In this document: positions 7,976 to 57,136 of the stretch, piece after piece
Layout: every line of letters begins with the position of its first letter
Numbering within the stretch: position 1 is the first letter of the stretch
Assembly: GCF_964204645.1 (NCBI RefSeq)
Contig: NC_134026.1
Location: 11,555,950 to 11,619,949, forward strand
Reading direction: 5' to 3'
Length of the DNA stretch: 64,000 bases
Source of the DNA: Tubulanus polymorphus
Lineage: Eukaryota; Animalia; Nemertea
Notes under the pieces: model-generated
The model's database searches: none
Told to the model about the DNA's origin: nothing
What the model saw: the letters and a program-made list of their open reading frames with translations, nothing else
Made by a program: the position numbers and the translations under genes

Positions 7976-7993
7976 CATATTTATTTTTATATT

Positions 7994-31371: not shown

Positions 31372-31659
31372 GTGACAAGGTCAAAGAGCTGAATGATGCA
31401 GCTATTATGGGGAGGAAACTCAGTAATCTGGAAATACTGACCAACAACCTCATCAGTATGGCAGGAAGCCGGCCTCGCATTTCGCTCGACGTTTTTAGGA
31501 AGAGGCAGGCGGCCTGCACCGTACCCGCCTCGGAAGATGCACCATCAGAAGCAAAACGACATAGGGAGGAGAAAGAAAGGCCAACAATAGAGGCATGTAG
31601 GTTTAACCAAACCTCATGGAAATCTTTCATAGGGGCTACACTCAAAAAAGGAGAAACGC

Positions 31660-33320: not shown

Positions 33321-33324
33321 ATAG

Positions 33325-34266
33325 ATGGAAGATTGGCCACGCAGCAAAAAAATCCTCGCAGCTTCATGGAGGGATTCCACCAAGGCTCAATCCAACAACT
33401 ACATTGACAAATGGGAACGTTATTGTTTTCGAAGGGAGACGAGTTCAACTTTTACAGATATAGAAACTGTAGTGGAGTTTTTGACTGAACTTTATGTTAA
33501 TGGTTTAAGTTACAGTGCTATTAATAGTGCACGCAGTGCGTTATCTAATTATGTGGAAATACCAGGAGATAAAACGGTTGGTTCCTCTACGCTAGTGAAT
33601 AGATTTATGAAAGGAGTATTCAATTTAAGACCTTACATTCCCAGGAACAATGTAACTTGGGACCCCTGCCTTTTACTGGATTACTTGAAAACCATTTCCC
33701 CAGTTAGGAAATTGCTTCTTAGAGAGCTAACTCTCAAAACGTTGTCGTTATTATGGTTGCTGGCAGGGCAAAGGGGTAAGACTATCCTCATGATAGATAT
33801 TAGAAATATTGTTTTGACTGAAAATTCAGTTAAAATTAGGTTTGGGGATATTCTCAAAACCACTAGACCTGGTTTTCATCAGGAAGAAATTAAAATTAGA
33901 GCTTATGCTCCTGATAGGCGTCTCTGTCTCGTTACGGTTTTGAAGGAATATTTGAGTCGTACTGAAGATTTAAGAGACTCGTTTCAGTTGTTTATAAGTT
34001 ATTGTAGGCCTCATGGGGCTGTGTCTAGGGATACGTTATCCAGGTGGCTTTAGGTGACAATGCAAAAAGCTGGAATAGATGTAGATAAATTTACTCCTCA
34101 TTCAATTCGTGGGGCAAGTACGAGTGCTGCTCTGAAGGCCAGAGTACCTATCCATACAATTTTATCCACTGCTGGTTGGGCTAGAGAAAGCACTTTTAGA
34201 AACTATTACAATAAACCGGTGGAGAAATGTAAGGCAGATTTTGCCACTGCTGTTTTAAGTTTATAG
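33325..34266 (+). pseudogene. DIRS tyrosine recombinase (one internal stop at 34051-34053)
   Basis: INSARSALS, GQR, KTTRPG, HSIRGASTS, AGW..ESTFRNYY (R-K-HxxR-W-Y catalytic set). Confidence 0.92.
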
Positions 34267-36269: not shown

Positions 36270-36718
36270 TTATCATTTAATCATATAATAATGAAAATCC
36301 TTGATTATATTTTAGTTTGCATTGTAGTCGCAATATTTTCATCAGTTTTTGTGTCATATTCTAAACATATATTTGATAATTTATAACTTATATCTTTAAT
36401 TACACTCGATAATACTATTTCATTTACAGGTGCAAAAGTTATTTCCAATATTAAATTAAATATCAAATTGCTAATATCAAATTATTAAATGAAATATCGA
36501 ATTGCATATTTACATAAAGGCGCGTTATTATTTATATATTGAAAGTCTAATGGAATTTATGTTTATATATTTTTATTTATTTTTATTTTTAATCATTTTT
36601 ATTAAATTATCTGCAGCATTAGTTTTATTGCGTTATTAGCTCCTGACAACTGAAATTAAAAATAAAATTACATGTTCTGCAGCATAACTAATAATACTTC
36701 CAGCAGATTTCAATATAA
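36270..36718 (-). pseudogene. Decayed fragment of a second, related Polinton (major capsid plus neighbouring gene)
   Basis: 36280-36645 aligns by eye to 46335-46650 (MCP), and 36645-36718 to 47145-47220. Confidence 0.8.
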
Positions 36719-38856
36719 AAATATAGCTGCAAAGCAGCGATAACGGGTTTTCTGCACAGTCTTAGAATCCTGTTCAACGGTCGATTTCGACAAAGCATTT
36801 GATAGGCACAACATAAGCCATTACTAAACCGGCTATTAGGAAACAGAATCAATGATAGGTCGCCCAAATGGCTCAGTAGTTACGAAAACTTGTAGCCGAC
36901 ATCAACGGAACGCCTCATCTCAAGTCGGTCTAACTAGTAGAGCATCCTAAGTCGTCTTCTGTTTAATGTCCTGACAAATGACATACACAGTAATCCAAAA
37001 AATACCAGACCGAGTAAATTTCCAAAACGAACTTAACACGCTGTTCGACCAAAAAACTTAATGTTCCGACAAGAAAATCTTGTTCGAGTGTAAACAATTC
37101 AGTTTGGTCGAACAATACGCTTTTTGTTTGAACCAAAACTCTCTTCATTCTGACAAAAAAATGTGTTCGAATGAAAAGCTATGTAATTGTTGAAATGAAA
37201 AGCTTTTTGTCCCGGCAAAAAAATTTGGTTGAGCGAAAACAATTTTTTCGAACGAATGTTTGAATGAAAACAATTCTGTTCGATTGAACGAAATAATTAA
37301 TACTTTTGGTGCGGAGAAAAAACTTTTTACAATATACTTGTTCGAAAGAAAAACTTAATGTTCTGAAAAGAAAATTCTGTTCAAATTAAAACGATTCTGT
37401 TCGATCGGACGATTGATCGAACGAAAAACCTTTCGTTTGGACAAAAAAAGTGTGTTCAACTTTGTTCTAACAATTTTTTCAAATTGGTTCAATCGAAAAG
37501 AATATTATTGGTTGGAACGAAATAAATTTTGTTGAAAAAACTCAAATGAAAAGTCTGGCTTATAAAGCTGTCTCCTCAGACGAAAATTTTCAAAAAAATC
37601 TTCATTTTTGTTAATAAAATTGATAATTGTGATTGATCGTTGCACGTCACAACCAGTTAATCACTAATTGACACGCATTTTAATAAATCTGATTCCTTCT
37701 TTACAGTGAACTTAGCTTTAACCTAGTAGAGGCTACTAGCCGATGTAGGCCTATGTATACGCGTAGGCCTAACATCCGGACAGATTGGTCGTAGGCCTAT
37801 TGAATAACAACCCACCTAAATATCGTAAATTTTGTTTTGAAGTTCAATCCAATGAGTCCGTTAATAAACGCAACAATTATACTGTGTTTGTTTGAGACAG
37901 TAAAGCTCAGTACCGGTAGGCCTAAAGCCGCGTAAAACTCGATAAACACTTCAAGCGACACAGCGAACGATCACCTTTCTCCCACAGCGAACGCTTACTC
38001 CGAACGTCAAGTGTGAGTGAGTCCAGCATACGGAAAGGAGTGTGTTATATATACTTGTATTTAATAAGTACCTTGTGCATTTGACAATGATCGGTATGTA
38101 CTGTAGGAAATATAGAGAATTGATTGTATTGATATAGAGGTTGAAGCCCGCGGCCGAATTAAGTAATATATTCTGTTATTTTGATACCTCGTCGACATAA
38201 CAGCTTTTCTCCGCTATATCTCTTCGGCGTGTTTAGTTTAGGCCTACGACTCCCCGGTACACTAAAGATTTATCTTAGTAAATACACGGTAAATTTGGTA
38301 AAGAAAAATAGGTATTGTTAAACTAACTCCTTGAAACCCGCAGCCAAATCACTCGTAGTAACAAATTAATTTGTACTCGATTTGATTCTCATGATGAGGA
38401 GAAACTCGCAGCTGATCCCCGGAACGTCGATTCGTCGATGTTTACGGCTCGACAGTGCTTTTAAAATCAAAAGTAGTAAATTCCCAGTGTATCGGTAATA
38501 TGATTTGATGAGGAAAATGGGCTATTGTTAAAATTACGGTTTGAAGACCGCGGCTGAATGTGAAGTCTGCGGCAATAAATTAGTTCATTTATACTTGAAT
38601 TGACAATCGAAGTGACAATCGGCCTGCAGGTTGATTTCGGGATGACGACTCGAAAAACATGTCGCCCCATTGAATGGGGCTAAAATGTCGATGTTTACGG
38701 TCCGACAGTGCTTTTGTAACGATGATTCGTGAAAAAACACGCAGAGTATTTGTAGATCTCAGTGAGCTGAACGATATCATACGGATTGTATCGACAACAG
38801 CGGCAAGGTAACAAAGCCTTAGTTCTTTTAGTGAAAATAGTGTGACATAAAATAAT
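36719..38856 (-). mobile_element. HINE family A body, degenerate TTCGAA-rich core
   Basis: Begins ATATAGCTGCAAAGCAGCGATAACGGGTTTTCTG. Reverse complement of the 5807-7975 flanks with a different central array (37040-37530). Confidence 0.75.
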
Positions 38857-38882
38857 AAGTATAGCTGCAAAGCAGCGATAAC

Positions 38883-39476
38883 AGTAATAGGGGTAATGGG
38901 CTTTCAGGCCAAAGGTCGAACGGTCGAGCTCATTAAAAAACAAAACATTAAAAGTAATTTAAAACTATAATATATTTTCATAACCGTGTGCATTTTATAT
39001 TATAACTAAATATTTATTCTAAGATATCAATAATTTAAATTTTAAATGCATATTGTATTAAATCAATTGGTCGCTCCACTTCGCTACCACTCCGCTCCGC
39101 GAACAATTGATTTATTTACAATACACATATTCATATAATCAAATATATTTTAATAATAATAATTATTCTATTATTCAACTGAAATACACACGGCTATTAA
39201 AATATATTATAGTTTTAAATTACTTTTAATATTTGTTTTTAATGAACTCGACCATTCAACCTCTAACCTGAAAGCCCATTACCCCTATTACTCTTAAAAT
39301 AATCATATAAATGAATAACATTTAAATTGAAAGATTATTCAATATAAAAGTATATATTTACAACATTATTTCAATATTCATATTTGTATGAGTTAGATTT
39401 TTAAACATTAAAAGTGTTAGTAAAGTGTGATTGAAATAATACATGATATAAATCATTGAACTTCTAAAATCAATTT
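38883..39476 (+). repeat. Polinton left TIR, containing a ~410-bp internal hairpin (38883-39292)
   Basis: Reverse complement of 55698-56259. The terminal sequence reappears inverted at 39267-39292. Confidence 0.93.
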
Positions 39477-39498
39477 AGTAAAAAAATATGTATAATAA

Positions 39499-40152
39499 AT
39501 GGAATCAGAACAACCACAAACTATAAATATAACAAATAACACTGGCGTCATAAATATATACTACAAGAAGTGTTCTAAATGTAAATTAGATAAATTAGCT
39601 ATAACAGAATTTAATAAGCGTAAGATTAGCAAAGATGGTTTTCAATATTTCTGTAAAACTTGTTTTAAACTATATACCAAACAATATCGAGAAGATAATA
39701 TAGAACATTATAATTATTATATGGCAGAATATATGAGAGTAAGATATCAAACACATCTTAATTTTAGATTGAAACAATGCTTAAGATCTAGATTAACACA
39801 ATTATTCAACAAAGAAACGCATTCAGAAACACTATCTAATTTATTGGGTTGTTCAGATGAATTTTTCATATCATGGATAATATATCAATTCGACGATAAA
39901 ATGAATATAGATAATTATGGTGAATACTTTCATATTGATCATGTGTTGCCGATTTCTAAATTTAACATGAATGATGAATACAATAAAAAACTTATTTGGA
40001 ATTGGAAGAATCTAAAACCTTTAGAAAAGAAGGAAAACATAATTAAATCTAATAAACTAGATATGAAATTATATTTAGATCAACTGGATAAAGCAAAGAC
40101 ATTTGTTGAATTATGGAACTCAACACATAATGAAAAATACGTTGAAGCTTAA
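39499..40152 (+). CDS. Zn-ribbon plus HNH endonuclease of NCLDV-like type
   Basis: CSKC...CKTC, LRSRL, LLGCS, NYG..FHIDHVLP..F....NWKNLKPL...N..KSN. Intact 217 aa. Confidence 0.75.
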   Translation: MESEQPQTINITNNTGVINIYYKKCSKCKLDKLAITEFNKRKISKDGFQYFCKTCFKLYTKQYREDNIEHYNYYMAEYMRVRYQTHLNFRLKQCLRSRLTQLFNKETHSETLSNLLGCSDEFFISWIIYQFDDKMNIDNYGEYFHIDHVLPISKFNMNDEYNKKLIWNWKNLKPLEKKENIIKSNKLDMKLYLDQLDKAKTFVELWNSTHNEKYVEA

Positions 40153-40578
40153 GCGCTTAGAAAACCGGTTACTCTCGATCTATGTCAAACCGCCTATATG
40201 TAATTGTATTAGCTCTTTGCATCTGTCGCACGTTATATTCAGTTGAATGGGGTGTATCTCATTTGAATATTGATCGAATGTGCTATTTCAGTTGAAAAGG
40301 ATTAATCAATTACATCACAAAGGAACATCTGTTACAATCCAGGCAAACGTGCAGGAATAATTAGTTTGGACGAACGTGTGCCACGTCGGCAGTTAGAAAT
40401 CAACTTTCACATACATAGTACGTATTGGATATTCTCTCTCAAAATACAGTTTACAGTTCTAAATCTAAGTGTAAGTACCGTTTTTTGTAGTTATTATGAA
40501 GTAGGGAAACCTTTGAACATATTTAAGTACAGTAATTCATTTTTCAGTAATTCATTCATCGACATCTTTTAGATTAAA

Positions 40579-41001
40579 ATGGAATACAGAGATCAACCAG
40601 AAATTCCAAGCCAACCAACGGATGAGGAACCAGAAACGACGGATAGTGAAACACAGGAATCAATAGAAATGGAGGATAAAACTCTCGTAATTGACGAACA
40701 AACTTCACAAAAATTACAAGAACATTTGGACTATCATCAAGAAATGGTGAAAATTCTGAGTGATGTAATACATAATAAACAATTACCGCGCGAACTACAA
40801 TTACCAAAATTACCAGCAACGCGACTTAAATTGCTGTTTGGACTCAAAGAATCGAAAACTAAGAAAATGAGTGGAGATATCAGTGCCGGTTTTGAAAGAA
40901 AACTGAGAAGAGTAGGTAGATTAATAAAATATGAAAAATTCAAAATATTAGGATTAGCATTTAGTGAAGTAGTCAGATATTTACCGGAAATTGAAAAATG
41001 A
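40579..41001 (+). CDS. Polinton hypothetical protein
   Basis: 140-aa ORF with TAAAATG start and acidic N-terminus. Confidence 0.45.
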   Translation: MEYRDQPEIPSQPTDEEPETTDSETQESIEMEDKTLVIDEQTSQKLQEHLDYHQEMVKILSDVIHNKQLPRELQLPKLPATRLKLLFGLKESKTKKMSGDISAGFERKLRRVGRLIKYEKFKILGLAFSEVVRYLPEIEK

Positions 41002-41865
41002 TTGGAAACAATCCAGTAATTAAAGAATTCTGGACAAAATTATAAATTATAACACTGAAGGTCTTGGATATCAAAAAATGTAATCTCGATTGTATATATC
41101 TGTTTTAATATTGATTGTTTACTGTTAACTAAGTATTGCGCAATAACCGGTCCGATTGAACCGCTTTTCTATTGTTCTCCATTGTTCTATTATCGATCGT
41201 TGTTAATGGCGGCGGTTGTTCTGTATTGATTGTTTACTGTTAACTAAGTATTGCGCAATAACCGATTGGACCGCTTTTCTATTGTTCTCCATTGTTCTAT
41301 TATTGATCGTTGTTGACGGAAACAGCTGCTCAATATTGATTGGTTACAGTTCTATGTTTGAATGTTGTAGTTTACAGAATAAAAATATAACTGTGTATTG
41401 CGCAATAACCGATTGGACCGCTTTTCTATTGTTCTCCATTGTTCTATTATCGATCGCTAAAATTTGTATAAAAAATATATGTGTTTATGAAATAGTAATT
41501 CCACCAGTCGTTTCTTTGAATTTATTTTCAGTTTGAGGATTTATTATCGAGGATCCGAAATGACTTATCTGGACAGTTATAATTACTGCTCCTAATAGAT
41601 AGACAATAGTAGTGAGATATTAAATCCTAATTTAAATAAAATATAATAAAAAAACAATAACTTCAACTGCTAGTGAATTCTATTATATTTTTAATATTTT
41701 CTTTTCAAAAAGAGAATACTTTATATTTTGAATAGATTCAAATAGAAATTCTTTAAATTCAAATAGCTAGTATCAGTAGTCAATACTAGAATTCTTTAGC
41801 TTTAACTAGCTAGTATCATTTGAAGAATACTTATAATATTTTTTTTGCTTTTTTCTCTAATATAA

Positions 41866-42469
41866 ATGTCAAAGAAATCTAATAAGAATAGTATTGATAT
41901 TGAAAAAAACATTAGATGATTTGGGTATAAGTGATAATAAAGATACAGTTGTAACTAATTGTGCTCAAGTTAATTGTAATATAGATTATGAATACTATTT
42001 ATATTGTGAGCATCATCTTGAATTATTAATTGCTGGCGGGAAATCTAAGGATTTCTTGGGAAAAATAATAACTTTTCAAGAATTAGATGCTATGAAACCA
42101 GATAAAGTAATAAAATATTTTGAGATTTATGAAGAAGCAAGATTAGCCCGAATAAATGATTCTATTTCAGATGGTATTGTCAAATGTTACTCTAAGTTAT
42201 GTAACCAGTTAATACCAATTGATGACGAAAATAAATTATATAGTGATTTGAAAAATGACTACTTAGTTATGACTGAATTACAAAAATGGGTCGGTTATGC
42301 TTCATTCCAATTAGGATCGGTTATGACATTAATTTCTACTGGCGTCATAACATTTTCGAACATCAAACCTATGGAATATAAATCAGGTAAGAACGAAACA
42401 GATGTACTACAACCAAACACCGAAACAGAAAATGAATCAGAACAAAAATTAACTAAAATAAATGAGTGA
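41866..42469 (+). CDS. Polinton/adintovirus hypothetical protein (5' frameshift)
   Basis: TAAATG start at 41866 joins ORF 41894-42469 (GKSKDFLG...DLKND). Confidence 0.6.
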
Positions 42470-42829
42470 TGGATTTAAGAAAAAGGCTAGATCCGAGAAA
42501 CAAATTAAATGGGCAAGAGAATTAGGTAAAAGATCTTCAGAATTAAAAAAAGCTAAGAAAAAGAAATTAACTGATTAAATGAATCACAGAAATTATCTGA
42601 TATTGATTCAAATAATAATCCATCTGATTCTTCTAATGCTGGACGTAATTATGAATTATATATTACAATTGGATTAGTAACAGTTATTATATTATCCGGT
42701 GTAATATATAAATCAAAATTCAAATCTGATGATAAAGATGATTCCAATGACAATAAACCTATTATATCAGAAAATACGTCAAATCATAAGGCCATTGAAA
42801 CTAAATCTAAATTATTATTAATGGATTAA
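42462..42829 (+). pseudogene. Small basic protein with a TM segment (frameshifted)
   Basis: TAAATG start; SEKQIKWARELGKRS and LYITIGLVTVIILSGVIY. Confidence 0.5.
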
Positions 42830-42835
42830 AAGAAG

Positions 42836-43932
42836 ATGAAAAAAAGAACAATATTTAAGATATTTATATTATAACCCAGAAAGTGAAGTATCATATTCTA
42901 ACGTTACAGAATTATGGAATAAAATTAAATCTGATAAGGAAAATGGTAATGGTGCCGTATGGCACCCACACGGTGATATAAAATATAGCGAATTGAACAT
43001 ATCAAATCCACAAGAAAATGGATAAAACTTATTTAACAAGAAAAGTTATGGTTTCATATATCGATCAACAATGGCAAGCAGATTTAATTGACATGAAGAA
43101 CTTAGAGGAATACAACAAAGGATATTTCTGGATATTAAATGTTATAGACATATTCAGTAGATACGCATGGTCAATTCCAATCAAAAATAAAACTGGTATA
43201 GAAGTAACAAATGCTTTTAAATCAATATTTAAAGAAGCTATTCCAGATAAGATACAATTTGATGAAGGTAAGGAATTTTATATCAAACATTTTAAAAAAC
43301 TATTATCTGATAACGATGTAAAATATTTTTCAACACATTCAGATAAAAAAGCATCTATTATAGAAAGATTTAATAAAACATTGAAAACTAGAATGTGGAA
43401 ATATTTTACTGCTAATGAAACATATAAATATATCGATGTGTTAGATGATTTGGTGAAAGGTTATAATAATTCTAAACATAGTTCTATAAATATGAAACCT
43501 ATACAAGCTAGAAAAGAAGATAATTCGGAAATAGTTTGGAATAATTTGTATGGTGTGTTTGTTACACATGATTTCGGTGAACCTAAATTCAAAATTGGAC
43601 AACACGTAAGAATATCTAAATATAGAAAAACATTTTATAAAGGTTATACCCCAAATTTTACAGAAGAAATATTTAAAATTAAAAAGATAATATTAACTAA
43701 ACCTTTTGTTTGTAAATTAGAAGATATAAAAGATGAAGAAATATTAGGTTATTTCTATGAACAAGAATTATCACTTGTACCAAATCCAGATGAAATAGAA
43801 TACAAAATAGAAAAAGTATTGAAAACAAGAACTCTTAAAGGAAAAAAGTATTCTTTGGTGAAATATAAAGGATATGATGATAAATTTAATGAATGGATTT
43901 TATCTAGTGAAATTAAAAGAATAAATGAATAA
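42836..43932 (+). CDS. Retroviral-type (rve) integrase with C-terminal chromodomain; N-terminus frameshifted
   Basis: LYYNP, WQADLIDM, IDIFSRYAW, QFDEGKEF, IERFNKTLK; chromodomain YKIEKVLK..LVKYKGY...FNEW. Confidence 0.93.
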
Positions 43933-44521
43933 AGATTTATTTATATTTGAACCGCATAATATGTTAGTTACTGGTGTAACCAATTGTGGTAAAACACATT
44001 TCATATTAGATTTGTTAGAAACTATTTATAAGAATCATTTTGATAATATAATATTATTCTGTCCTACTTATGAAATGAATAGAACATATAATAGAGATAT
44101 AGTTAAGATAAAAAAGTTTATTATATTAGATCCTAAAACAGTAAAAGAAAATTTAGATAATTGTATTAAGATAGCAATTGATACTTATAAAGGATGAAAT
44201 ACATTATTCATTGTAGATGATTGCGCAAATTTACATGATTCAAAAGTTAGAGAAAGTGAGTTATGTTATCTAGCTTTCTCTGGGAGACATTTTGGGATAA
44301 CAACATGGGTTTTAAATCAAAAATATAATTCAATTGTTAAAGACTTTAGGGAGAATATAAGATTTCTAGTTTTATTTTATAACAAAGATAAAAAATCTAT
44401 GCAACAATCATCGGAAGAAAATCAAATTATACCTACTGAATTACATGATGAATATATGAATAAATTAAAGAATAATAAAGATTCAAAATTATTACTGAGA
44501 TTACAATTTCCATATGAATAA
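43925..44521 (+). pseudogene. A32/FtsK-like packaging ATPase (in-frame TGA at 44195-44197)
   Basis: Walker A GVTNCGKT. After the stop come Walker B LFIVDD, then SGRH and LNQKY. Confidence 0.88.
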
Positions 44522-44895
44522 AAATTTATAAAATAACTATTTGTATACCTATGTATTAGATACCCCAATACATGATACCCTATTAGATACCCTAATACCT
44601 GATACCCTATTAGATACCTTAAATACTTAAAACCCCCTTTTTTAAAATAAATATTTTTTATACAATTTTCAACCAATTTATTTTTATTTTATCAACTAAT
44701 ATATGAATAAGTTTGAAATAATAAAGGTTATTTATTATTACTGAGGTTTCAATTTCCATATGAATATCAGTTTATAAAATAAGATATTTTATGTATTTGA
44801 TTGTATTAGATATGTATTAGATATGTATTAGATACCTTAAATACTTAAAACCCCCTTTTTTATTTACTATTATTTTATACAATTTTCAACCAATA
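44480..44895. repeat. Duplicated convergent intergenic block with short GATACC repeats (possible terminator region)
   Basis: GATACCTTAAATACTTAAAACCCCCTTTTT occurs near 44614 and at 44831. Lies where the + and - gene blocks converge. Confidence 0.6.
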
Positions 44896-44919
44896 TTATT
44901 ATTTGTGTTAAATATAATT

Positions 44920-45774
44920 AATATTTCAATCACTTTCACTATCAGACCCTAACAATTTATTCAAATTCTCTACCGTATCATCGTCAATAGTTGTTTTATT
45001 TTTATACTTTTTCATCCTTTCTACCGCATCATCAATAGTTTCTTCTTTATGTTTCATAGAATGTTTATTATCAATATCTGTAACTATATCACCATGTGGG
45101 TGCCGTATGGCACCATTTTCATTATTATCTTTATTAGTGTTTGCTCCTAATATTTCATTTACAGTGTTTGGTTTTAATATTTCATTAGCATAGGTTAGAT
45201 CTAATTCATCTTTATTAGGTGTTGCTAATAATAAATCTTCATATATTTTTTCACCATTTACTTTTTGATTTGAAACAAACTTTGTAACCTATCTAAATGG
45301 GTGTTCTATAAATTCTTTTAAACCAACACGTTCTATAACATTATTTATATGTACCCTTGTATTCATATGTTTATTCCAATTTGATGTAGCGTTTGAAAAT
45401 TCACTTTTACAATATCCACAATAATTTCTATTTTCACTAACATTTAATATTATTTCATTATTAGATGTAGAAGGTATTACATTATTAGATGTAGAAGGTA
45501 TTACATTATTAGATGTAGAAGGTATTACATTATTAGATGTAGAAGGTATTGCGTTATTAGATGTAGAAGGTATTACATTATTATCAATTACATTACTTAA
45601 ATTATCAACAACACCACTTTTATTATTATCGATTTCTATTAGTTTAGTTTTATAAATTTTGAAAATAGGATCAAATATCAAAGCTATATTACAAGGTATT
45701 ACATAATATAAACCATCATTATTTTCATGTGTATCGATGTACGGAATATGTTTATATACTTTACCTCCTTCCAT
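44920..45774 (-). CDS. Hypothetical protein with 8-aa repeats (NNVIPSTS) and a C2H2-like finger; continues past the stop at 45289
   Basis: ORF 45289-45774 (CGYC...H....H). The downstream frame stays mostly open to ~44920. Confidence 0.55.
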
Positions 45775-45806
45775 TTATTATATAAATTTTTATTAAAGTT
45801 AAAATT

Positions 45807-47054
45807 TTAATACATAACACTATTTAATTGAGAATTTACAATATTTAATTGCGCGTCAGATATAATATAAATGTGCATTTTAAGATTTTTGATTCCTTTA
45901 TTCTTTGTCATGAATAATTGTATTCCATCTTTAGTGTTCTGTAATTTTTTTCCAGAACCATGTAATGAATTATCCTCTGTTGTTCTAAAATCTAACCATA
46001 ATGCATATTTATTACCGGTATAATAATCAATTTGATTAATATTACAATTTTCAGATGATTTCACATTTTCATTCATAAAATGTTTTCTAATTTCTGGCCA
46101 TTGATTAATCATTCTCATTCCTTGACAAAATATTTTATTTGCTATTCCTTCGATAGTTATTTCTACTTTTGTTATTTCAGGATTATAATGATTATCAACA
46201 TTTATTGCACCATTAGTATATGTTGCAATGGTAAAAAATATTAATACACCTTTAATAGATCTTCTTGGGAAGTTAATATTCTCATTAATAATTTCATCAT
46301 TTGCATTAATAGTTACGGTTTTAAATTTATCAATGTAATCATATAATAATGAAAATCCTTGATTGTATTGAGTTTGAATTATACTTGAAATATTTTCATC
46401 AGTTACTGTATCATATTCTAAACATATATTCGATAATTTATAACCCATATCTTTAACAACGCTAGATAATACAATTTCATTTACAGGAGCAAATGTTATT
46501 TCGAATATAACATCTTCTTGAATTGCGTATTTATATAAAGGTGCATTATTATTTATCAATTCAAAGTCTAATGGAATTTTATATTTGCTTCCATATATAC
46601 TTTTTATCAATTTATCTACAGCATTAGTTAATATTGCATTATGTGCTTCTGATCTTAATTTATTTTGGTTTTCTGATTGGATTCCTTGAAATATCATATT
46701 ATTTCTGTTTTCTCTAGTTAACCATAAATCTTTATAATGCGTAAATAAATTATAATCATCTAATGAGAAAACTGTTTCGGGACCAATCTTTATTGTTAAC
46801 TTTTTAATCAAATATCTCCCAACATTATCAACAACATAATTATTATTATTACCGATTACTTTTATATCGGCTGATAAATAAATACTATTTGGAACATAAA
46901 AAGTATTTTGTGTCAATCGAGGAATTCTAACATATAAAGTTTCATCGGGATTAATATTAGAAGGGTTATGAGTAATTATATGATGAGATCTTTCTGCTTT
47001 AATAGCATTAGATATTCTATAATTCTTAGAAGGATTGATATAACTCCCACTCAT
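45807..47054 (-). CDS. Major capsid protein (double jelly-roll, hexon-like)
   Basis: Intact 415 aa. NPSNINPDETLYVRIPRL, IPLDF, NICLEYDTV, ALWLDFRT..D..LHGSG, as in adintovirus-type MCPs. Confidence 0.85.
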   Translation of the reverse strand: MSGSYINPSKNYRISNAIKAERSHHIITHNPSNINPDETLYVRIPRLTQNTFYVPNSIYLSADIKVIGNNNNYVVDNVGRYLIKKLTIKIGPETVFSLDDYNLFTHYKDLWLTRENRNNMIFQGIQSENQNKLRSEAHNAILTNAVDKLIKSIYGSKYKIPLDFELINNNAPLYKYAIQEDVIFEITFAPVNEIVLSSVVKDMGYKLSNICLEYDTVTDENISSIIQTQYNQGFSLLYDYIDKFKTVTINANDEIINENINFPRRSIKGVLIFFTIATYTNGAINVDNHYNPEITKVEITIEGIANKIFCQGMRMINQWPEIRKHFMNENVKSSENCNINQIDYYTGNKYALWLDFRTTEDNSLHGSGKKLQNTKDGIQLFMTKNKGIKNLKMHIYIISDAQLNIVNSQLNSVMY

Positions 47055-47094
47055 TTATTTAACAAAAAAATTGATTATTTATTTTTTATCATGT

Positions 47095-48562
47095 TTACTT
47101 GATATTTTTTGATATCATGTTTACTAGCCCAAAAATAATAGCACTTACAACTGTAATTAAAAATAAAATAATATGTTCAGCAGCAAAGTTAATAATGTTT
47201 CCTGCAGATTTCAATATAAAACCAACAATTGATGCAATAACTCCTGGCAATGCTGCAGCAGATTTTTTAGATAGTTCCCATAAATATTTTGCTAATTTCT
47301 TTAAACCATCTTTAACTTTATCTTGTATAGAATTATTATCATTCGGGGGTTTATCCGGTTTATTGGGAGTAGGAGTAGATTTCAAAGCATTTGATATTGC
47401 TAAACCAATTGTTGTAAATAACATAGTTACAGCTGTTAGAATTGAACGAATTGTTATTCCTTCTGATTTAAATAATAATCTTATTCTATCTTTCAATGAT
47501 ATTTTAGAATTTGGTTTAATCAACAAATCTTTAACAACAACTTTTAATCTATTAATATTATAATCATATGATTTTAATAATATATCTCTTTCACCTTTCA
47601 GTACTTCTAAATTATCTTTTAAATTATCAATTTCTTTTTCTAAACGTAATTTTTTTTGCCTATATTCCATTTCATCAATTACTTGACGATCAAGATCAGA
47701 CTTGTTCCATTTCTTTATTCTTATCAGTTAATTCTTTTTCTAAATTTCTAATTTCAATATCTCTTATACTTTTATCATGCGCAATTTTATCAGATGCAAG
47801 TCTTATACTTTCAATTTCTCTAATTGCTTCAACAGAAAATATATTATTTAAATCTTCTAATTCTTGATCTGTTGCATCAAGTAATCCATTTGGTAAAAGT
47901 TTTTCGGTTTGAACTTCTCTTGAATTAGGTTTATTAGTTTTGGAAGTTATATTCTGTTCAGAAGTTGTTTCTGTTTCTAAATTATTTTTGATTGTTTCAA
48001 ATAATTCATTAATTCTTTGTTTAAATACTCTTTTATTTTGATTTATTTCTTCTTGTGTTACATCTTCTATTTCATTACTATTTCTTATTCTCTTAATTCT
48101 AGATGTGTCAAACTTAAGCAAAGTTGATTTTGCTATTATTTTTTCTTCTTTTTTATTAGAGATATTAATATAATAATCCGAATCATCTTTCAACCTATAA
48201 TAATATTCACCATCTAAAAATTTTAATTCTTTTACTAAAAGTCTGGCGCCTCTATAATTTATATTATATCCAGATTCTTCAAATACATGTTGGAACTTAT
48301 ATATAAATTCATAATTTTCTATATTTTCTCTTTCTAAATCTGGATTTAAATTTTCAATAGGTATTCTCGATCTAGTTCTTCTATCATGTTCATCTGTTGA
48401 TGGGGCTTTAGAACCACTATCTGCTAAATTAGAATTATACGCTGATTCATTACCATCATCATCAATATTATTATCAGCAGTCATATAATCATCATTGTTA
48501 GTATTGGCATCATCATTATTTCCCATGCCTTCCATTTCATAATCTTTTCCACCTTCTGCCAT
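47095..48562 (-). pseudogene. Adintovirus-type coiled-coil protein with C-terminal hydrophobic helices (split into two ORFs)
   Basis: ORFs 47696-48562 and 47095-47670; LF..EGITI.SILTA and AALPGVIASIV. Confidence 0.65.
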
Positions 48563-48579
48563 TTACATAATAAAAAATT

Positions 48580-49929
48580 AAAATTTAAAATATAATATTC
48601 CTCCGATTACAATTCCTATACAAGTTAAAGCTAATTTAGCATTTTCATGGGATTTATTATCATCATTTAGTTCAATTATATCATGTTGAATATCACCGTG
48701 TGGGTGCCATATGGCACCATTATCAGTTCTAATATTTTCTGATGTATTGTAATCTTTTATTTTAGAATCATTATTTAATCTAATATTCTTAGTTTTAGTT
48801 TCTGTTGATTGAATATGTTTTTTATTTTTTCACCTTCCATTAATTTTGGAGCAGTAATCTTTTTATATCTTTTTATTTATATCATTTAATCCAAATGAAT
48901 TATTTATTGTTGCAGTTTTAATTAAATTATTATAACCAATTATGTTTCCCATCTTTAATACTAAATCATTAGAAATAATTAATAGATAAGGGCCTATACA
49001 ATAATTTAATCTAATATGTGATTTATCTAAATAATTTTGATATCTTACAATGTTTTCTGGAATCGATCTATTTTTATTATTATGAATGGAATCTTCAAAT
49101 AATACTTTAAATTGTTTCTGCGCATCGAATGAAGTGTTATCATTTCCAATTATTGGGGATCTTGTCTCAACTTGCGCACCTAAAATACAAATTAAATAAT
49201 GGATTGATTTATTCTTTGTATACCAGCTTTAGTAAAACCTTCACTATTTTCTAAAATGAAATTAACCCAACCATTATTGTTTTGTTGTTGTATATTATTA
49301 AAATATTTTGGTAATTCATTCCAATTTAGTGTTCTTATATCTGAATTTGTCATTATTTTTCCAAATTCTTTAGTATACAATATTCCTAATCCACCCATTG
49401 TTCCAATTTTTGCTCTAAAATCTTTATTTGAATTAATATTAAATTCATTACATATTTTATAAAACTTAGAAAAATTAATATTATTATTCAATTCTTTAAA
49501 ATATTTTGAACCTGGTAAAGGACATTCTAATTCATCTAATATTTATTTTATTTGAAAATATGTATGAAATCTAAAAAGTGATAACATCAATGGTAAACTT
49601 GGTTTGTTTAAATGATCATTCCAACTAATTCCGCATCCTGTTGTTGCGCAACAAACAGCAAAATTTAATTGGTTCTGCCAATACTTCATATTAGATTTTA
49701 ATAACCATTGTTTTGCCTCATTTAAATTTTTAAAATTAATTGTTTACACATGAAATATATTTTCCATCTTTACATGAAAATTATTACTTTCAGTAACATA
49801 AATATATAAATCAATTAATGAATCTAAAACTTCATTTCTATATGTTATATCTTTATTAAAATCTATTGCTGGAATATTATATTTAATTGATTTATTATAT
49901 TGGAAAGCTTTTGGAAAACTATCTGCCAT
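48580..49929 (-). pseudogene. Conserved Polinton protein (frameshifted)
   Basis: YWQNQLNFAVCCATTGCG.S..DHL, FRFHTYFQI..IL, G..RINQSI, CILGAQVETR; hydrophobic C-terminus. Confidence 0.65.
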
Positions 49930-49945
49930 TTATATAATTAAAAAA

Positions 49946-50380
49946 TTAATAATTTATTAATTCTTTTAATAATTTATCTTGTTCTTCAACTGTTATATGA
50001 CCATTTAAACTTATTATATAATCTAGTGTATTCTTTAATTTATTAATTTCTTTTTTATTAGTTTTAATTTTTTCTTTATTACTTTTTATATTTAATTTTG
50101 AACTTATACCAGTTAAAACACTTGAACTTAATCTTAATACACCAATTGATATAGCTAAAGGTGTTAATGGACTGAATATTGCTAGAAATGTTATTACAGA
50201 ACTAATTGTAACTGAACCACTTATAATCAAATAATATATAATTTGACATTTTAAATATTTTTTCTTTTTTATCTTTAAGTCACTTTCAAATTCTAATATT
50301 TGTTTTTCTAAATATATTTTTAATTTAGTTTTATTTATATCATGAGGAATAATATCAATATTAACAACTTTATCATCCAT
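49946..50380 (-). CDS. Small predicted membrane protein
   Basis: 144 aa, two hydrophobic stretches, TAAATG start. Confidence 0.6.
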   Translation of the reverse strand: MDDKVVNIDIIPHDINKTKLKIYLEKQILEFESDLKIKKKKYLKCQIIYYLIISGSVTISSVITFLAIFSPLTPLAISIGVLRLSSSVLTGISSKLNIKSNKEKIKTNKKEINKLKNTLDYIISLNGHITVEEQDKLLKELINY

Positions 50381-50399
50381 TTATTTAGCAAAAAAAAAT

Positions 50400-50824
50400 T
50401 ACTGATTAGTAAACTTATAAGCAACAAATATAACAATAACAGTTCCGCCTAAAATCCATATCATTTCATATTTCTTCTGTTCATTACTTGGGGTATAATA
50501 ATCTGATAATTAAGGTTTGTATAGATGTAATTTTTCTTTATTTGTTACTGCGTTATATAAACTCATTGCATCATCAACTGATTGAAAATCTCTATGTGAA
50601 ATCTTCTGATCAAATAATTCCTTGTTAATATAATCCATATAGTTTTGTCGTTTTTCTATATATTCTTCCGCTGCTTTATTGTATTTCTCTAACGCTAAGT
50701 TATGTCTTTTTTGTTCTGTTAATGATCCATTTTTATCAATATGCTTAAATAAATATCCACCACCAGTAAATGCTAAAGCGTTAACAATTGCCGATCCTAT
50801 GATAGTTATAACTGCAGAAGCCAT
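50400..50824 (-). CDS. Conserved small Polinton virion/membrane protein
   Basis: MAS...IGSAIVNALAFTGGGYLF...EQKRHNLALEK; the C-terminal TM segment is frameshifted. Confidence 0.65.
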
Positions 50825-50859
50825 TTATTTAGTAAAATATATTTTTGTTTTTCCAAATA

Positions 50860-51046
50860 ATCAATAGTTAAATTAGATTAAAGTAACTGCTAATGTTAAT
50901 TTTAAAATATCATTTATATCAAATCTATCAACATTAACACTTCCCATTTTGAATACTTCTTTAAATACCATTGAATAACCAACAGTTCCAACTGATAGTA
51001 ATGCGCCATTATATAATCCAGTTATTATCCACTTATTATCACTCAT
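50860..51046 (-). CDS. Small hydrophobic Polinton protein (not in the ORF track)
   Basis: MSDNKWIITGLYNGALLSVGTVGYSMVFK...DILKLTLAVTL; ATGA overlap with the upstream ORF. Confidence 0.5.
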
Positions 51047-51402
51047 TTATTTATCAAAAAATTACTATCTTCAAAATATTTAGTTATCTTATTTATGATT
51101 AATTCAACATTTATTTCATTACTAGTTTCATTTGTATATATTTCAATTATTATTTTTTTAATATCATCGATGATAAAATCTTCATCTAATTCATAAAATC
51201 TTAAAGATTCTCTAATTAAATTAGTAATCTTTTCTACATTTAAAGTTTCTTTATCTATTGTTGTTTCAAACTCAAATGTTGTTTCATTTGAAAATGCAAT
51301 ATTTTTAATATGTGTTATTACATCATTAACGTTAAATTTCATTTCTTTCTCACGTTTAAAATCAAATCCAAAACATATACTCGGTCCAACAGTTATATTC
51401 AT
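51043..51402 (-). CDS. Polinton hypothetical protein
   Basis: 119 aa with a T-run plus TAAATG start. Confidence 0.55.
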   Translation of the reverse strand: MNITVGPSICFGFDFKREKEMKFNVNDVITHIKNIAFSNETTFEFETTIDKETLNVEKITNLIRESLRFYELDEDFIIDDIKKIIIEIYTNETSNEINVELIINKITKYFEDSNFLINK

Positions 51403-51419
51403 TTATATAGTGAAAAAAT

Positions 51420-52176
51420 TACTCTTTACATCTTATAACTAATTCATATATCACAGGAAAGTTATTTAAATCTATTAAATAACCATTATGATTTCTTATT
51501 TCTAATTTAAAATTATTAAAATGTGGAATACAAGGTTGAAATCACATTCAGCTAAATTATAATTTATTTGAGTTCCAAATTGTTTAACATTTTTTAGCGG
51601 TAAAATATTTAGTATACTAGAACTACAAATTGTTTCTTTAGTTGCTTCGAAAGTTTTTGTAGGCTCGATTAAATTGCAATAAATATAAAAGTGTGTAAAA
51701 GGTATTATATTTGAATTACCATCTACGTTTCCTGTAACAGTATCTGGTACAATTCCTAACAGTTTAGCTATAGGTTTTTTTACCATAAATGCATGTTGAC
51801 TTACATCATATACCTTTATTTTAATTTTATTTGTGCTATCACTTTTTATAAATCTAATTAAAAATTTATCATCTCTTCTAATTTTCAACCGTGCTCTACG
51901 ATTAATTTCTTGAGCTAATGTTTCTAAATTATATAATCCTGGTTTTAAAATTAGATGAAACCATTTATCTACATTTCTAATATGAATTAAAACAGTATTA
52001 TCTTCAATAGTTTTATCCGATATATTATAAAAAGAATTACATAAACTTACATTTACTAATTTTAAATCAACACAATTCTTAAATTCTCTATCTAATTGTA
52101 CTAGTAAATTATGTGATTTATAATTTGTAAGTTTTCTAGAATCAACAAATATTCTGTATTATTTTAATTCTACCAT
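51420..52176 (-). pseudogene. Minor capsid (penton-like) protein, interrupted
   Basis: LVNVSLCNSFYNI, LKPGLYNLE, FYIYCNLI, LNILP, IRNHNGYLIDLNNFPV.YEL. Confidence 0.7.
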
Positions 52177-52193
52177 TTATTTTACATATTTTC

Positions 52194-52547
52194 TTATTCG
52201 AAATCTATTTCATGGTGCCCTTTTTCATTCTTACCTTTGTATACGAAATAGAAATCACCAGAACATAATTCTTCTAGATCTTCACTTGATAATCTATGAA
52301 ATCTATCCGGTAAATATGTTCTGAATTTATGTGTATTTCCTTTTAATCCTTCATATTCTAAGTGTATAACTAATTTATCTCCATATTTGTTAGTAACTGT
52401 ATCAATATTTGTAATTAGATATTTCTTATAGATTATTAATTCTTTTAACTTCTTAAATTTATAATCTACTGATTTGACATTTGAAGTATCTTTTATTCTA
52501 TCTAGAAATAATTTGTTGTTCTCACTGTGTGCTTGTTTACTCTCCAT
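52194..52547 (-). CDS. Small protein next to pPolB, possibly an OB-fold ssDNA-binding protein
   Basis: FKKLKEL...Y.I.....V.NKYG..LVIHL...F.TYLP.RF. The function is inferred only. Confidence 0.45.
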   Translation of the reverse strand: MESKQAHSENNKLFLDRIKDTSNVKSVDYKFKKLKELIIYKKYLITNIDTVTNKYGDKLVIHLEYEGLKGNTHKFRTYLPDRFHRLSSEDLEELCSGDFYFVYKGKNEKGHHEIDFE

Positions 52548-52576
52548 TTATAATACATATTTTTATTAAAATTTGA

Positions 52577-55500
52577 TTAACACGTTAGAATTCTTTTCAT
52601 TATCTCGTTCTCTTTGGTTTCTTCTCTTTTGAACTTTAGATATTCATCTAAATTACAACCATATGTAACTGTATGAATTCCATCATCTAAAATATATCTT
52701 TTATCATCAAATGGATTCAAACTAACCTTTTCAATTTCTTCAATAAACATTTCATGATCTTCAAATCTTAAACATCTCATCTTATGTTTTCTAACTTCTT
52801 CATTGAATATACAATTGATGTAATCTTTGAAATGAATATTCTTTTCTACTACACTTTTGGTTATTCCTTTTAACTTTTTAGCTTCATGTTCTTTAGTTTT
52901 ATATGAATACATTTTAGATCTAATACCGATGAACTCTATCATTTCTTCACCACCTAATTCATCTTTGAATTTACCAGGAACTTTTTTATTATCATTGCTA
53001 AACAATTCATGATTTTTAGGATAGTTACTGAAATCAAAATGATGTTTTAATGTTTTTAAATCATCTGTTATGTTATCAGTTTTTATCTTTAATATGTAAG
53101 AATCTGTATCAAAATATAGTATTTCTATATGTTTTTCTCCAAAAAGTGGTTGTAATACATTATAATAGAATTCATACATTAGTAATTTTGATAATTCTAA
53201 AACTGACGCACCAACATAGATTGGTTTATTAAATTTCATAGAAGTTCTTCTCATTTTAACTGCGGCTAAATTTTCATCAAATATTCTGTTACCTAAAAAC
53301 TTAGGATATGTTTGTAAATGCCTTATCCTTTTACCATTACTAACTAACTCAATATGATTTCTATTTCTAATATTTTCACAAGTCTTACCATAGAATGCAT
53401 TATTCATTAACTTGAAGAAATCTTTCTCAAAATCGGTTTTAGCTTTAGTTCTCTGTTTGGTGTTAAAATCTATATATTTTTCTAACCACTTAGATTGACT
53501 GAATGAAATATATCTATGTACTTTTTTTAGAACCATTCCTTGTTTTAGATAAAACTTTAACATTCTATAATGTACTACATAATTATATTTATCTTCTTGA
53601 GTTACCATTAACTTTTCTGTATGAATATGATTTTCAGGTTTAATTCTTTTTTGGTAATTTGATAATTCTTCATGAGTTACAGTTTTATGTTCGGGACAGT
53701 AAGCTAGATTTCTAAATTTAAATTTAATATGTTCAGGATATTCTAAATCTACAACAAAGAAGTAACCAGTATCTGAATCATCTGCAATATCTAGAATTCT
53801 TTTCTTCAAATCAAATTTATCATTATTCCATAAGGTTGTGGTTCCATCATTGCCCAACCATACAAATTATTTGCATCTATATATAATAACTTATATCCAG
53901 GGTTATCATTTACATTGAAATATCTATCACCTAATACACCTGAAACTCCTCCTCTTATAGATTTTTCAAATAATAATAATTGATCTATATTTGTTAACAA
54001 ATCCATTTTTATATCTGTAAATTTTAATCCACAATCCCATGTTAATCCTGGACTAGAATAACAATGACAAGGATCAATATTGAAATATTTTAGGTTTACA
54101 TCTCTAAACCTTTCGAATATATCGGTTAATAATAATACATCTGATTTTAAATATAAATCTACTAATTGCCCATGATTTTCTATTTTGAAATGATTCCAAA
54201 TATTCAATGTTCTATTATATACTTCATCTTTAACATATTCATTTTTTAATTCATCATAGAATTGTTCTTTTAATAATTCAGTTATATTGAAATCATTATG
54301 TGATTTATAAAATGAATATGGAATTGCTCCTTTATATTTTATTAATTGAAAATCATCATTATTTGGGTAGTGTTGTTTTAATATTTTCAATTCATCATCA
54401 ACTAATGATTTTGATAAGTTATCTAATGAACTATTTAAAAATCTATATGAATCTATAAATCTTAGGCAACCAAATTGGAATGATATATAATTCTCAGATG
54501 TTTTAGCTAACATTCTAAATTTATAAGTTGGTATTTTATCTTTTGATCTATTTGAATTTAATCTTTCTATTTCGTTATTAATTTCTTCTATTTTATGACA
54601 TAACTGTTTGATAAATAAATGTGCATCATATCCTGATAGATTATGAAATATAACTGGTACAAAGTTAATTTTCTTAGCTTGTAAGTTACAATTCTCATGC
54701 GCGGCGCCTCTAAACTTTCCATTCAAATGATCATGGTCTCTTACTTTTTTATCTTTATAATTAAATATCTTTTCACAATAATAACATTTATCTGCAAACG
54801 CAAATTCTTCTTTATCTTCTTCTGTCATTATAATTTCTATATTATTATTCAATAATTTACTAAATCTTATTTCATATTCAATTAATAAGTCACAAAAATG
54901 ATTGATAACATTTTCATTTCTATAATCATAATATTCACTTTCAATTAGTTCTGGATAATCAGATTTAATATATAACCCGAAAGCAGCAGCTGATTGATGA
55001 ATCTTTTTAATAGTATTTGTTTTTGGTGGTTCTTCAGAATAATCATTTTCATTAGAATTTAATTTCTTTCTTTTATAATATATTTCTTTTCTATCTTGAT
55101 CAGTTAATTCTTTATTTAATGATTCAAAATCTCCATATATTATAAATGGTACTTTATTTTTGTAATCATATTTTTTGAATTCTAATATTTTATCCTTTTC
55201 ATTTGGTAAGACTAATTTACAATAATCATGATTTTCACATAATTGTTTATGATTTAATAATGTACTTTCATTACTGAATCTATGTAAACATTTTCTTCAA
55301 AGATATATTTTATGGTGATCACTTTCTGATTTAAAAAATAAATCGATTTGTTTAATCCACATATAATGATTCTCATAATACAGTATATCTATAACATCGT
55401 TTGAATCATAATCTTTTGATAGATATAAAGGTTCTAATGTATAATGTTTTATATTGTTACCTTTTGTATTTGGTAATTTGATTAAATCAAATACATTTAT

Positions 55501-55677
55501 CTTTATATTATTATCTCTTTCTATTTTTGGGATGTTTTTAATTATAACAGGATACTTATCTATCTTATAATTATTTTCAAATTGTTTATAAAATTGTTTT
55601 AGTTTTATTGTGTCTTGATTTTTGGGATTTATCTATATTGATATATATGTTGGACAGTAGTACTTATTTGCTTCCAT
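52577..55677 (-). pseudogene. Protein-primed family B DNA polymerase with endonuclease-VII-like insert (frameshifted)
   Basis: IYGDFES, CYYC...VRDHDH..GKFRGAAH..CN, FHNLSGYDAH, FIDSYRF, YIDANNLYG, KLMNNAFYGKT, YFDTDS. Confidence 0.95.
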
Positions 55678-55697
55678 TTTAATACTAAATTTTTTAT

Positions 55698-56259
55698 TAA
55701 AATTGATTTTAGAAGTTCAATGATTTAAATATGAATTATTTCAATCACACTTTACTAACACTTTTAATGTTTAAAAATCTAACTCATACAAATATGAATA
55801 ATGAAATAATGTTGTAAATATATACTTTTATATTGAATAATCTGTCAATTTAAATGTTATTCATTTATATGATTATTTTAAGAGTAATAGGGGTAATGGG
55901 CTTTCAGGTTAAAGGTTGAATGGTCGAGTTCATTAAAACAAATATTAAAAGTAATTTAAAACTATAATATATTTTCATAACCGTGTGTATTTCAGTTGAA
56001 TAATAGAATAATTATTATTATTAAAATATATTTGATTATATGAATTTGTGTATTGTAAATAAATGGAGCGACCAATTGATTTAATACAATATGCATTTAA
56101 AATTTAAATTATTGATATCTTAGAATAAATATTTAGTTATAATATAAAATGCACACGGTTATGAAAATATATTATAGTTTTAAATTACTTTTAATGTTTT
56201 GTTTTTTAATGAGCTCGACCGTTCGACCTTTGGCCTGAAAGCCCATTACCCCTATTACT
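55698..56259 (-). repeat. Polinton right TIR, containing an internal hairpin (55883-56259)
   Basis: Mirror of the left TIR with a short deletion at the hairpin apex. Confidence 0.93.
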
Positions 56260-57136
56260 GATAACGGGTTTTCTGCACAGTCATAGAATCTTGTTCAACG
56301 GTGGATTTCGACAAAGCATTTGATGAGGCACAGCATCAGCCATTACTAAACAGGCTATTAGGAAACAGTATCAATGATAGGTCGCCCAAATGGCTCAGCA
56401 GTTATCTCTGAACGAAAACTTGTAGCCGAAATCAACGGAACGCCTCATCTTGGAATAAGTCGGTCAAACTAGTGGAGTCACGCAAGGTAGTATCCTAAGT
56501 TGTCTTCTGTTTAATGTCCTGACAAATGACATACACAGTAATCCAACATATACCAGACCAAGTAAATTTCCAAATCGACCTTAACACGCTGTTCGACCAA
56601 AAAACTTAATGTTCCAACAAGAAAATCTTGTTCGAATGAAAATAATTCTGTTTGATCGAACAATACGCTTTTTGCTTGAACCAAAAATTTTCTTCATTCT
56701 CACAAAAAATGTGTTCGAATAAAAAGCTATGTTATTGTTGAAATGAAAAATTTGGTTGAGCGAAAACAATTTTTTCGAACGAATGTTTGAATGAAAACAA
56801 TTCTGTTCGATTGAACGAAATACTTAATACTTTCGGTTCGGCGAAAAAGCTTTTTTCAATATACTTGTTCGAAAGAAAAACTTAATGTTCTGACAAGAAA
56901 ATTCTGTTCAAATTAAAACGATTCTGTTCGATTGAACGATTGTTCGAACGAAAAACCTTTCGTTTGGACAAAAAAAAGTTTGTTCAACTTTGTTCTAACG
57001 ATTTTTTCAAATTGGTTCAATCTAAAAGAATATTATTGGTTCGAACGAAATAAATTTTGTTCCGACGAAAGAATTTTCAAGCGAAAGGTCTTTTGAACGA
57101 AAGAAAAGATATTTATGGTGCTCCGCAGTAACTTAA

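Follow-up and report, generated by a model that had tools for sequence, protein, structure and literature searches.

A Maverick/Polinton element of 17.4 kb occupies positions 38883 to 56259 of a 64,000-nucleotide stretch of the genome of the nemertean Tubulanus polymorphus (contig NC_134026.1, positions 11,555,950 to 11,619,949; the whole stretch is called the window), and nearly every gene of this element begins with TAAATG, in which a TAAAT sequence is fused to the initiation codon. The motif is real, lineage-specific and quantitatively similar to the promoters of poxviruses. By analogy with virophages, a model is proposed, with a probability of about 0.7, in which the elements of this lineage would be integrating hyperparasites whose genes are read by an RNA polymerase that a co-infecting pox-like virus supplies. 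The element is a Maverick/Polinton by the presence of terminal inverted repeats (TIRs), a 6-bp target-site duplication, a DNA polymerase B of the protein-primed type (pPolB), an rve integrase, a double jelly-roll major capsid protein (MCP) and an A32 packaging ATPase.

TAAATG starts in the window

Fourteen gene starts reading exactly TAAATG, and two reading TAAAATG at 40579 and 55677, had been listed in a preliminary description of the window, and all of them were confirmed. Its statement that almost every gene carries the motif holds for 14 of the 17 starts, although the seventeenth gene, an integrase whose start lacks TAAATG, had been overlooked. Most of the starts are real: at 43925, 45774, 47054, 48562, 49929, 50380, 50824, 51046 and 51402 the alignment with intact homologues begins at residue 1-3, and near 41866, 42462, 52176 and 52547 it begins at residue 8-19. 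Third-order Markov simulations of the element gave a chance rate of 6.8% (889/13160 first ATGs preceded by TAA), and the probability of finding 14 or more TAAATG starts among 17 is 2e-14. TAA precedes 52/682 of all ATGs in the element and 46/1580 of all ATGs in the flanks, which served as the host control.

Restriction of the motif to one lineage

Relatives were collected through their capsid proteins. An MCP search returned 922 proteins, of which 120 were listed; a search with an alignment of the window MCP and 60 of them supplied the best 80 of 185 metagenome matches and two loci from metagenome-assembled genomes (MAGs). Open reading frames (ORFs) were assigned to 14 core families by blast and the best ORF per family and locus was kept; N-terminally truncated fragments and unassigned ORFs were left out of the core-gene counts. 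TAA was found before the ATG in 68/76 core genes of 19 motif-bearing loci against 1/275 in the remaining Polintons, sister elements with the same core genes which, unlike the motif-bearing ones, have A at -3 (the A of ATG being +1). By MCP, 16/19 motif-bearing loci are close to the window, 14 of them in the window clade (SH-aLRT 99) and two partial. The window clade of the MCP tree taken alone has TAAATG at 48/55 starts, and all other loci, L040, L072 and L076 included, have it at 18/293.

AT content is not the explanation, because the motif-free loci of at most 40% GC have TAAATG at 0/56 starts (A at -3 in 88%) whereas motif-bearing loci of 27-44% GC have it at 43/49. The preliminary description had named equal frequency at AT-matched starts as a result that would speak against its claim; in fact, the motif is far commoner in the motif-bearing lineage than at AT-matched Polinton starts. 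The trait requires three changes on the MCP tree, and a single origin of the motif-bearing elements was neither established nor rejected (p-AU 0.13, quick trees). Among the elements compared, no gene unique to all motif-bearing members was seen. An IMG/VR search found no MCP relative, and a pattern scan for head-to-head TAAATG picked out 15 loci with 16 such stretches, but in no case was the motif present throughout the genome (9/21 at best).

This distribution bears on the view that the promoters are relics of a pox-dependent ancestor and no longer so used. Such a view would agree with the decay of the window copy and with the three changes on the MCP tree, which indicate that gains or losses occur. 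The motif is nevertheless kept by 87-89% of genes, although MCP identity falls as low as 33-50% and GC content ranges over 20-44%; it persists where the gene order has been rearranged, and accessory genes have it too, for instance a deoxynucleoside kinase of the relative L003. Retention across divergent MCPs, base compositions and gene orders requires continuing selection in the lineage, so that a relic is very improbable. The L003 kinase gene (10340-10981; PF01712, E 2e-31) itself lies behind TAAATG and has homologues of 60-67% identity on short contigs; a search with it found no named viral donor. Polinton MCPs were also observed in bacterial MAGs (L081, L082, P0045), where they are probably binning contaminants.

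Promoter architecture

After three near-duplicate loci were dropped, 63 starts were profiled, and the profile showed A at -18..-16 and T at -15..-12, with T at -12 in 86%. G/C amounts to about 6% at -17..-12 against 22-39% in the spacer at -11..-7, and a purine follows the ATG in 61/63 starts. The two-part core profile was reached in 0/5000 within-sequence shuffles, and the AT-rich motif-free Polintons have no such positioned core. The same core is seen in the lineage of L040 and L076 (T at -12 in 12/15).

The starts of the window had been divided earlier into those behind a T-run and those behind an A-run, which were taken for late and intermediate promoters. Both run types are indeed present, but they form one architecture, with T at -12 in 16/17 starts including all A-run examples (the integrase start being set for this count at 42821, about 15 nt upstream of its alignment-based start). 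Separate classes are not supported: the same family has A-rich or T-rich cores across relatives, as in MCP from AAAAA to TTTTT, and both core types have T at -12, in a test to which replication genes contributed few starts and pPolB only one.

Among the exceptions, 6/8 retain TAAA(A)T at a distance of no more than 8 nt from the ATG and out of frame with it, which brings the count of TAAA(A)T near ATG to 74/76 overall against 11/56 in AT-rich negatives. The conserved unit is TAAAT and not a stop codon plus ATG. Furthermore, of the head-to-head gene pairs that overlap or are separated by 15-30 nt, 8/9 have TAAATG on each strand. The rarity with which the TAA closes a long upstream frame, the head-to-head motifs on both strands and the out-of-frame TAAA(A)T of the exceptions fit TAAAT as a transcription initiator.

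A translational or 3'-end signal (coupling between stop and start, a Kozak context rich in AT, or an AATAAA poly(A) signal overlapping the next start) could be suspected from the tight packing of the genes and from the reading AATAAATG at 9 of the 14 window TAAATG starts. However, TAA closes an open frame of at least 40 codons in only 6/63 starts, and the true stops are TAA 44, TAG 11 and TGA 10, whereas the triplet at -3 is TAA in 63 and TAG or TGA in 0 (neither occurs among 69 dereplicated starts, and one dropped near-duplicate, L014, has TGA). The motif also stands at first genes and in head-to-head pairs, which have no upstream gene. Where the sister elements have A at -3 these starts have T, the reverse; T at -5 in 46% disrupts AATAAA, and the core at -18..-12 is explained by neither stop-start, Kozak nor poly(A) signals. 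This explanation is largely refuted and retains scarcely any probability. As a separate candidate, trans-splicing was rejected because no AG acceptor precedes the ATG.

Comparison with poxviruses and other giant viruses

The pox control comprised 56 chordopoxvirus loci, whose identity was checked by Pfam. In these loci 578/1332 ORFs start TAA-ATG, in comparison with about 89% of the Polinton core genes; 17/35 families do so mostly, and a purine follows in 557/578. Family-weighted profiles of -24..-7, from which TAAATG itself was excluded, gave r = 0.70 at zero shift and 0.57 at +1 between the Polintons and the 17 chordopoxvirus TAAATG families, while the 14 starts of the window alone gave r = 0.55. 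With the same pox profile, the AT-rich motif-free Polintons reached r = 0.31. The Polinton profile itself gave r = 0.23 against contigs that are presumably iridovirus- or marseillevirus-like and r = 0.01 against 70 other giant-virus loci, in which 80/824 starts are TAA-ATG. The pox-like layout claimed in the preliminary description is thereby confirmed in quantity, since core, spacer and initiator match those of poxvirus post-replicative promoters.

Vaccinia late promoters contain TAAAT(G) plus a conserved upstream T (PMC11980589), and vaccinia cores of 8-11 nt lie about 6 nt (late) or about 11 nt (intermediate) upstream (PMC12722222). TAAA is read by the pox polymerase itself (PMC12917281), and the 5' poly(A) leaders of poxviruses come from slippage on the initiator (PMC12722222). 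The Polinton promoters have in common with the late and intermediate promoters of poxviruses the overlap of TAAAT with ATG, the purine, an A/T core with T and a GC-tolerant spacer (PMC11980589, PMC12917281, PMC12722222, PMC5294985); unlike these, they are carried by a 17-kb integrating Polinton without a recognisable polymerase and have no separate intermediate class. Two deep-branching RNA polymerases in public metagenomes, P0197 and P0207, branch with poxviruses outside the entomopoxvirus group on long branches. No locus for the divergent pox-like polymerase P0197 was found in IMG/VR, and an entomopoxvirus-based alignment search returned chordopoxviruses and other giant viruses only, with L231 (5/14) unclassified.

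Other signals were observed in the sister Polintons. In GC-rich sisters the region 25-60 nt upstream of starts contains TTGAA in 58/134 cases, where about 12 are expected, partly at orthologous positions (L018, L024, L027, L031, L037, L038, L043, L050, L057 and others). TTGAA is similar to the core of AAAATTGA, an early motif of giant viruses (PMC11788076), and other lineages may therefore suit other polymerases. AT-rich motif-free loci (L015, L016, L021, L023, L026, L034, L055, L058, L060, L081, L082) and L032 have TATATA or TATAAA 6-20 nt upstream of ATG in 17/43 against 6.8, a weak and possibly compositional signal like the asfarvirus-type late motif. Head-to-head genes of sister Polintons usually lie less than 50 nt apart, and the GC-rich elements have no enrichment of poly(A) signals after stops; this compactness appears hard to square with ordinary RNA polymerase II (Pol II) units across the family.

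Proposed transcription by a helper virus

In the proposed model, the lineage would place a poxvirus-type post-replicative promoter at nearly every gene, with a core ending in T at -12, a spacer of about 8 nt and TAAAT fused to ATG. For DNA outside the virion core of the helper, post-replicative promoters would be the only ones available, which would account for their use at replication and accessory genes as well. The element offers no recognisable polymerase of its own: in line with the earlier claim, the Pfam scan of its frames of at least 48 aa matched no RNA polymerase, capping or TBP/TFIIB family. As expected from poxvirus biology, the helper polymerase would read TAAA and start inside AAA (PMC12917281, PMC12722222). 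The mRNA would in that case lack the T at -3, which is unfavourable for translation, and would gain a 5' poly(A) leader before the AUG by slippage. By analogy with mavirus and the endogenous mavirus-like elements (EMALEs), integrated copies would be silent until helper infection, upon which their own pPolB would replicate and their own capsid and ATPase would package them (PMC10945749). The window copy would be a decayed insertion; it could not alone act as a provirophage, because stops or frame changes (decay or assembly error) are carried by about 11 of its 17 genes. The model predicts leaderless, poly(A)-capped transcripts, found only when a pox-like helper is present, and a poxvirus in hosts of the motif-bearing lineage.

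Several points weigh against this model. The T peak lies at -12 in the Polintons but at -13 (73%) in the pox control, which was chordopoxvirus only, from 17 central-genome families, with no entomopoxvirus, fish-poxvirus, asfarvirus or egovirus DNA as such. A column-shuffle permutation (0/5000) ignores the correlation of neighbouring positions and so overstates significance, and L040, L072 and L076 were added to the motif-bearing group after the motif had been seen in them. TAA-ATG was also found at 200/831 starts of the iridovirus- or marseillevirus-like contigs. Short divergent spacers and a lack of A[AT]TAAA after stops occur in motif-free GC-rich Polintons too (21/63 against a background of 167/488, and 10/195 against 59/1684) and, being family-wide, carry no weight for the helper model. 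No helper has been linked to the host, and the several genes without an assigned function may include a private transcription factor. Expression of coral polintoviruses, moreover, is seen in ordinary samples (PMC11131425, which states neither lineage nor promoter type).

If one of these genes were such a factor, the motif could be a private promoter fused to the start and read by host Pol II, which would yield near-leaderless mRNA independently of any helper. Besides the several genes without assigned function, the chromodomain of the integrase, by which the element reaches chromatin, and the very compact divergent spacers of the motif-free sisters would be in keeping with it. However, a TATA box overlapping the ATG would put the Pol II start downstream of the ATG, and no TBP, TFIIB or VLTF match was found in the window frames or in 34 proteins of motif-bearing relatives. 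Since there is also no gene seen in all and only the motif-bearing elements, and since the agreement with the pox core-spacer layout would have to arise by chance, a private Pol II promoter is considered unlikely.

The same mechanism may instead be served by a non-poxvirus polymerase, either of other Pokkesviricetes (an egovirus or asfarvirus relative) or of a pGKL-type yeast cytoplasmic linear plasmid. The upstream element of the yeast linear plasmids is ATNTGA, which is not enriched at the Polinton starts (3/76), and the profile has no match in the 70 other giant-virus loci. The 1-nt offset of the T peak, which suggests a divergent enzyme, the missing link of a poxvirus to the host and the pGKL initiator TAAAAT, which behaves like that of vaccinia (PMC12722222), would all suit such a polymerase, whereas the late motif of the asfarvirus type is TATATA (PMC11788076). 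On balance a non-poxvirus enzyme is judged quite unlikely.

Transcription by a pox-like helper, as preferred here, would have wider consequences. It is tentatively suggested, at somewhat less than an even chance, that one widespread branch of the animal Mavericks is made up of integrating virophage-like elements that parasitise an undescribed poxvirus lineage in aquatic invertebrates. If so, the promoter signature alone would suffice to group animal Polintons according to their helper virus and to predict poxviruses where none are known, and intact copies may act as an inherited anti-poxvirus defence.

Relation to known systems

EMALE types differ in promoter motif, and the motifs match the helper (PMC10945749). 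Like mavirus and the EMALEs of Cafeteria, the window element is an integrating element with pPolB and rve integrase that bears a giant-virus late motif, the motifs being lineage-specific (PMC10945749). Unlike it, those elements live in a protist host, have the mimivirid Cafeteria roenbergensis virus (CroV) as helper and were shown to be reactivated, whereas the window element has a probable animal host and a motif of the pox type, and its reactivation is a prediction; in the same comparison, Pfam detected no maturation protease in the window element.

Polinton-like viruses (PLVs) associated with entomopoxviruses occur in insect occlusion bodies and were proposed to be poxvirus hyperparasites (Barth et al. 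2024, PMC11296320). Like the window element they are Polinton-related, and two of them branch beside the mavpol2 MCP clade. AHEV_PLV1 differs in having a protease and a lipase among its listed genes and in that an integrase was not detected (PMC11296320). The words promoter, motif, TAAAT and transcription are absent from the main text of that report. With the animal Mavericks/Polintons known as adintoviruses (PMC8502044; 10.64898/2026.06.19.733378) the window element shares all the features by which it was assigned above, from TIRs and the 6-bp duplication to pPolB, rve integrase, A32 ATPase and double jelly-roll MCP, and the text of PMC8502044 lacks the words promoter and helper. A literature search, outside whose scope most subscription papers lay, found no report of TAAATG promoters in animal Polintons. 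A lineage-wide pox-type promoter provides a sequence-level handle on the transcription and autonomy of animal Polintons, and it suggests that integrated hyperparasites, so far shown in protists, may exist in animal germ lines as well.

Boundaries and genes of the element

The element forms an island of 24.5% GC, compared with 29-48% per kb in the flanks, and its termini read AGT...ACT. The target-site duplication GATAAC was read directly at 38877..38882 and 56260..56265. The left TIR (38883..39493) stops 3 nt short of the first initiator and contains the A/T core of the first promoter, while the right TIR (55682..56259) contains the core of the pPolB promoter; the two, of about 600 bp, align over 613 columns with 12 mismatches and 35 gap positions. 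Each TIR contains internal inverted arms (38879-39296; 55878-56264), so that a long terminal hairpin could form, and a GC-rich stretch of the left TIR is shorter in the right one.

On the plus strand, an HNH/endonuclease VII-like gene, whose start is the first ATG of an intact ORF of 217 aa (39499..40152; TAAATG, T at -12; phrog_1035 E 6e-14) is followed by a 140-aa ORF with no function assigned and a TAAAATG start (40579..41001), by a conserved core gene of about 200 aa with a frame change near its 5' end and a T-rich core before TAAATG (41866..42469), and by a conserved basic or membrane-anchored core gene, broken, with TAAATG (42462..42829). The rve integrase with chromodomain (42836..43932), broken at its 5' end near 42836-42997 and starting without TAAATG, precedes the A32-type packaging ATPase (43925..44533), which starts with TAAATG and contains in-frame stops.

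All remaining genes lie on the minus strand and, except for pPolB, start with TAAATG. They comprise a zinc-finger-like accessory gene with an A-rich core and an in-frame stop (44926..45774); the double jelly-roll MCP, intact with 415 aa and a T-rich core (45807..47054); a large conserved core gene with a hydrophobic C-terminus and a frame change (47095..48562); a conserved core gene of about 440 aa with several breaks (48578..49929); an intact two-helix membrane protein (49946..50380), whose L003 homologue is weakly SLATT-like; a conserved core gene of about 140 aa with an in-frame stop (50399..50824); and a conserved membrane gene of about 75 aa with a frame change near its end (50830..51046). 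A 119-aa ORF, present also in L003 and without a family found (51043..51402), is followed by a broken gene for a probable minor capsid protein with an A-rich core (51425..52176) and by a 117-aa ORF with an A-rich core (52194..52547), which gives a weak lead, and a lead only, to the phi29-type ssDNA-binding protein (0.84). The pPolB gene with an endonuclease VII-like insert (52577..55677) is broken and has a TAAAATG start.

The predicted fold of the MCP (pLDDT 88.5) matches the MCP folds of PBCV-1, iridovirus and mavirus with E 2e-17 to 5e-11, the mavirus match standing at rank 48 and being weaker than those to MCPs of nucleocytoplasmic large DNA viruses; when the MCP profile was compared with PDB sequences, no match was obtained. 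In Pfam, the polymerase matched PF03175 with E 5e-12 and the integrase PF00665 with E 9e-9, both genes being broken, and a PF03175 score as weak as this would be in keeping with PolB of the divergent Beta class. An adenain-type maturation protease is typical of most group 1 Maverick/Polinton members. No Pfam match to such a protease was found in the frames of the element, in which a divergent or decayed copy may be present, and the element was accordingly assigned to no group.

Sequences were also found repeated inside the element and in its surroundings. One GC-rich repeat of 39-46 bp lies in frame within three different genes (42941-42986, 45085-45123, 48683-48728). Two accessory genes that are otherwise unrelated are 76% alike over their promoters and first codons (39468-39518 and 52528-52578), stretches that also resemble the TIR end, and accessory genes may have been captured behind a copied promoter-start cassette. 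Reverse-transcriptase retroelements occur in the flanks at 7886-9193 and at 31332-34053, the latter presumably DIRS/Ngaro-like. Finally, a second MCP gene fragment, 73-86% identical, lies at 36270-36720, 2 kb to the left of the element, and an older related insertion therefore existed there.

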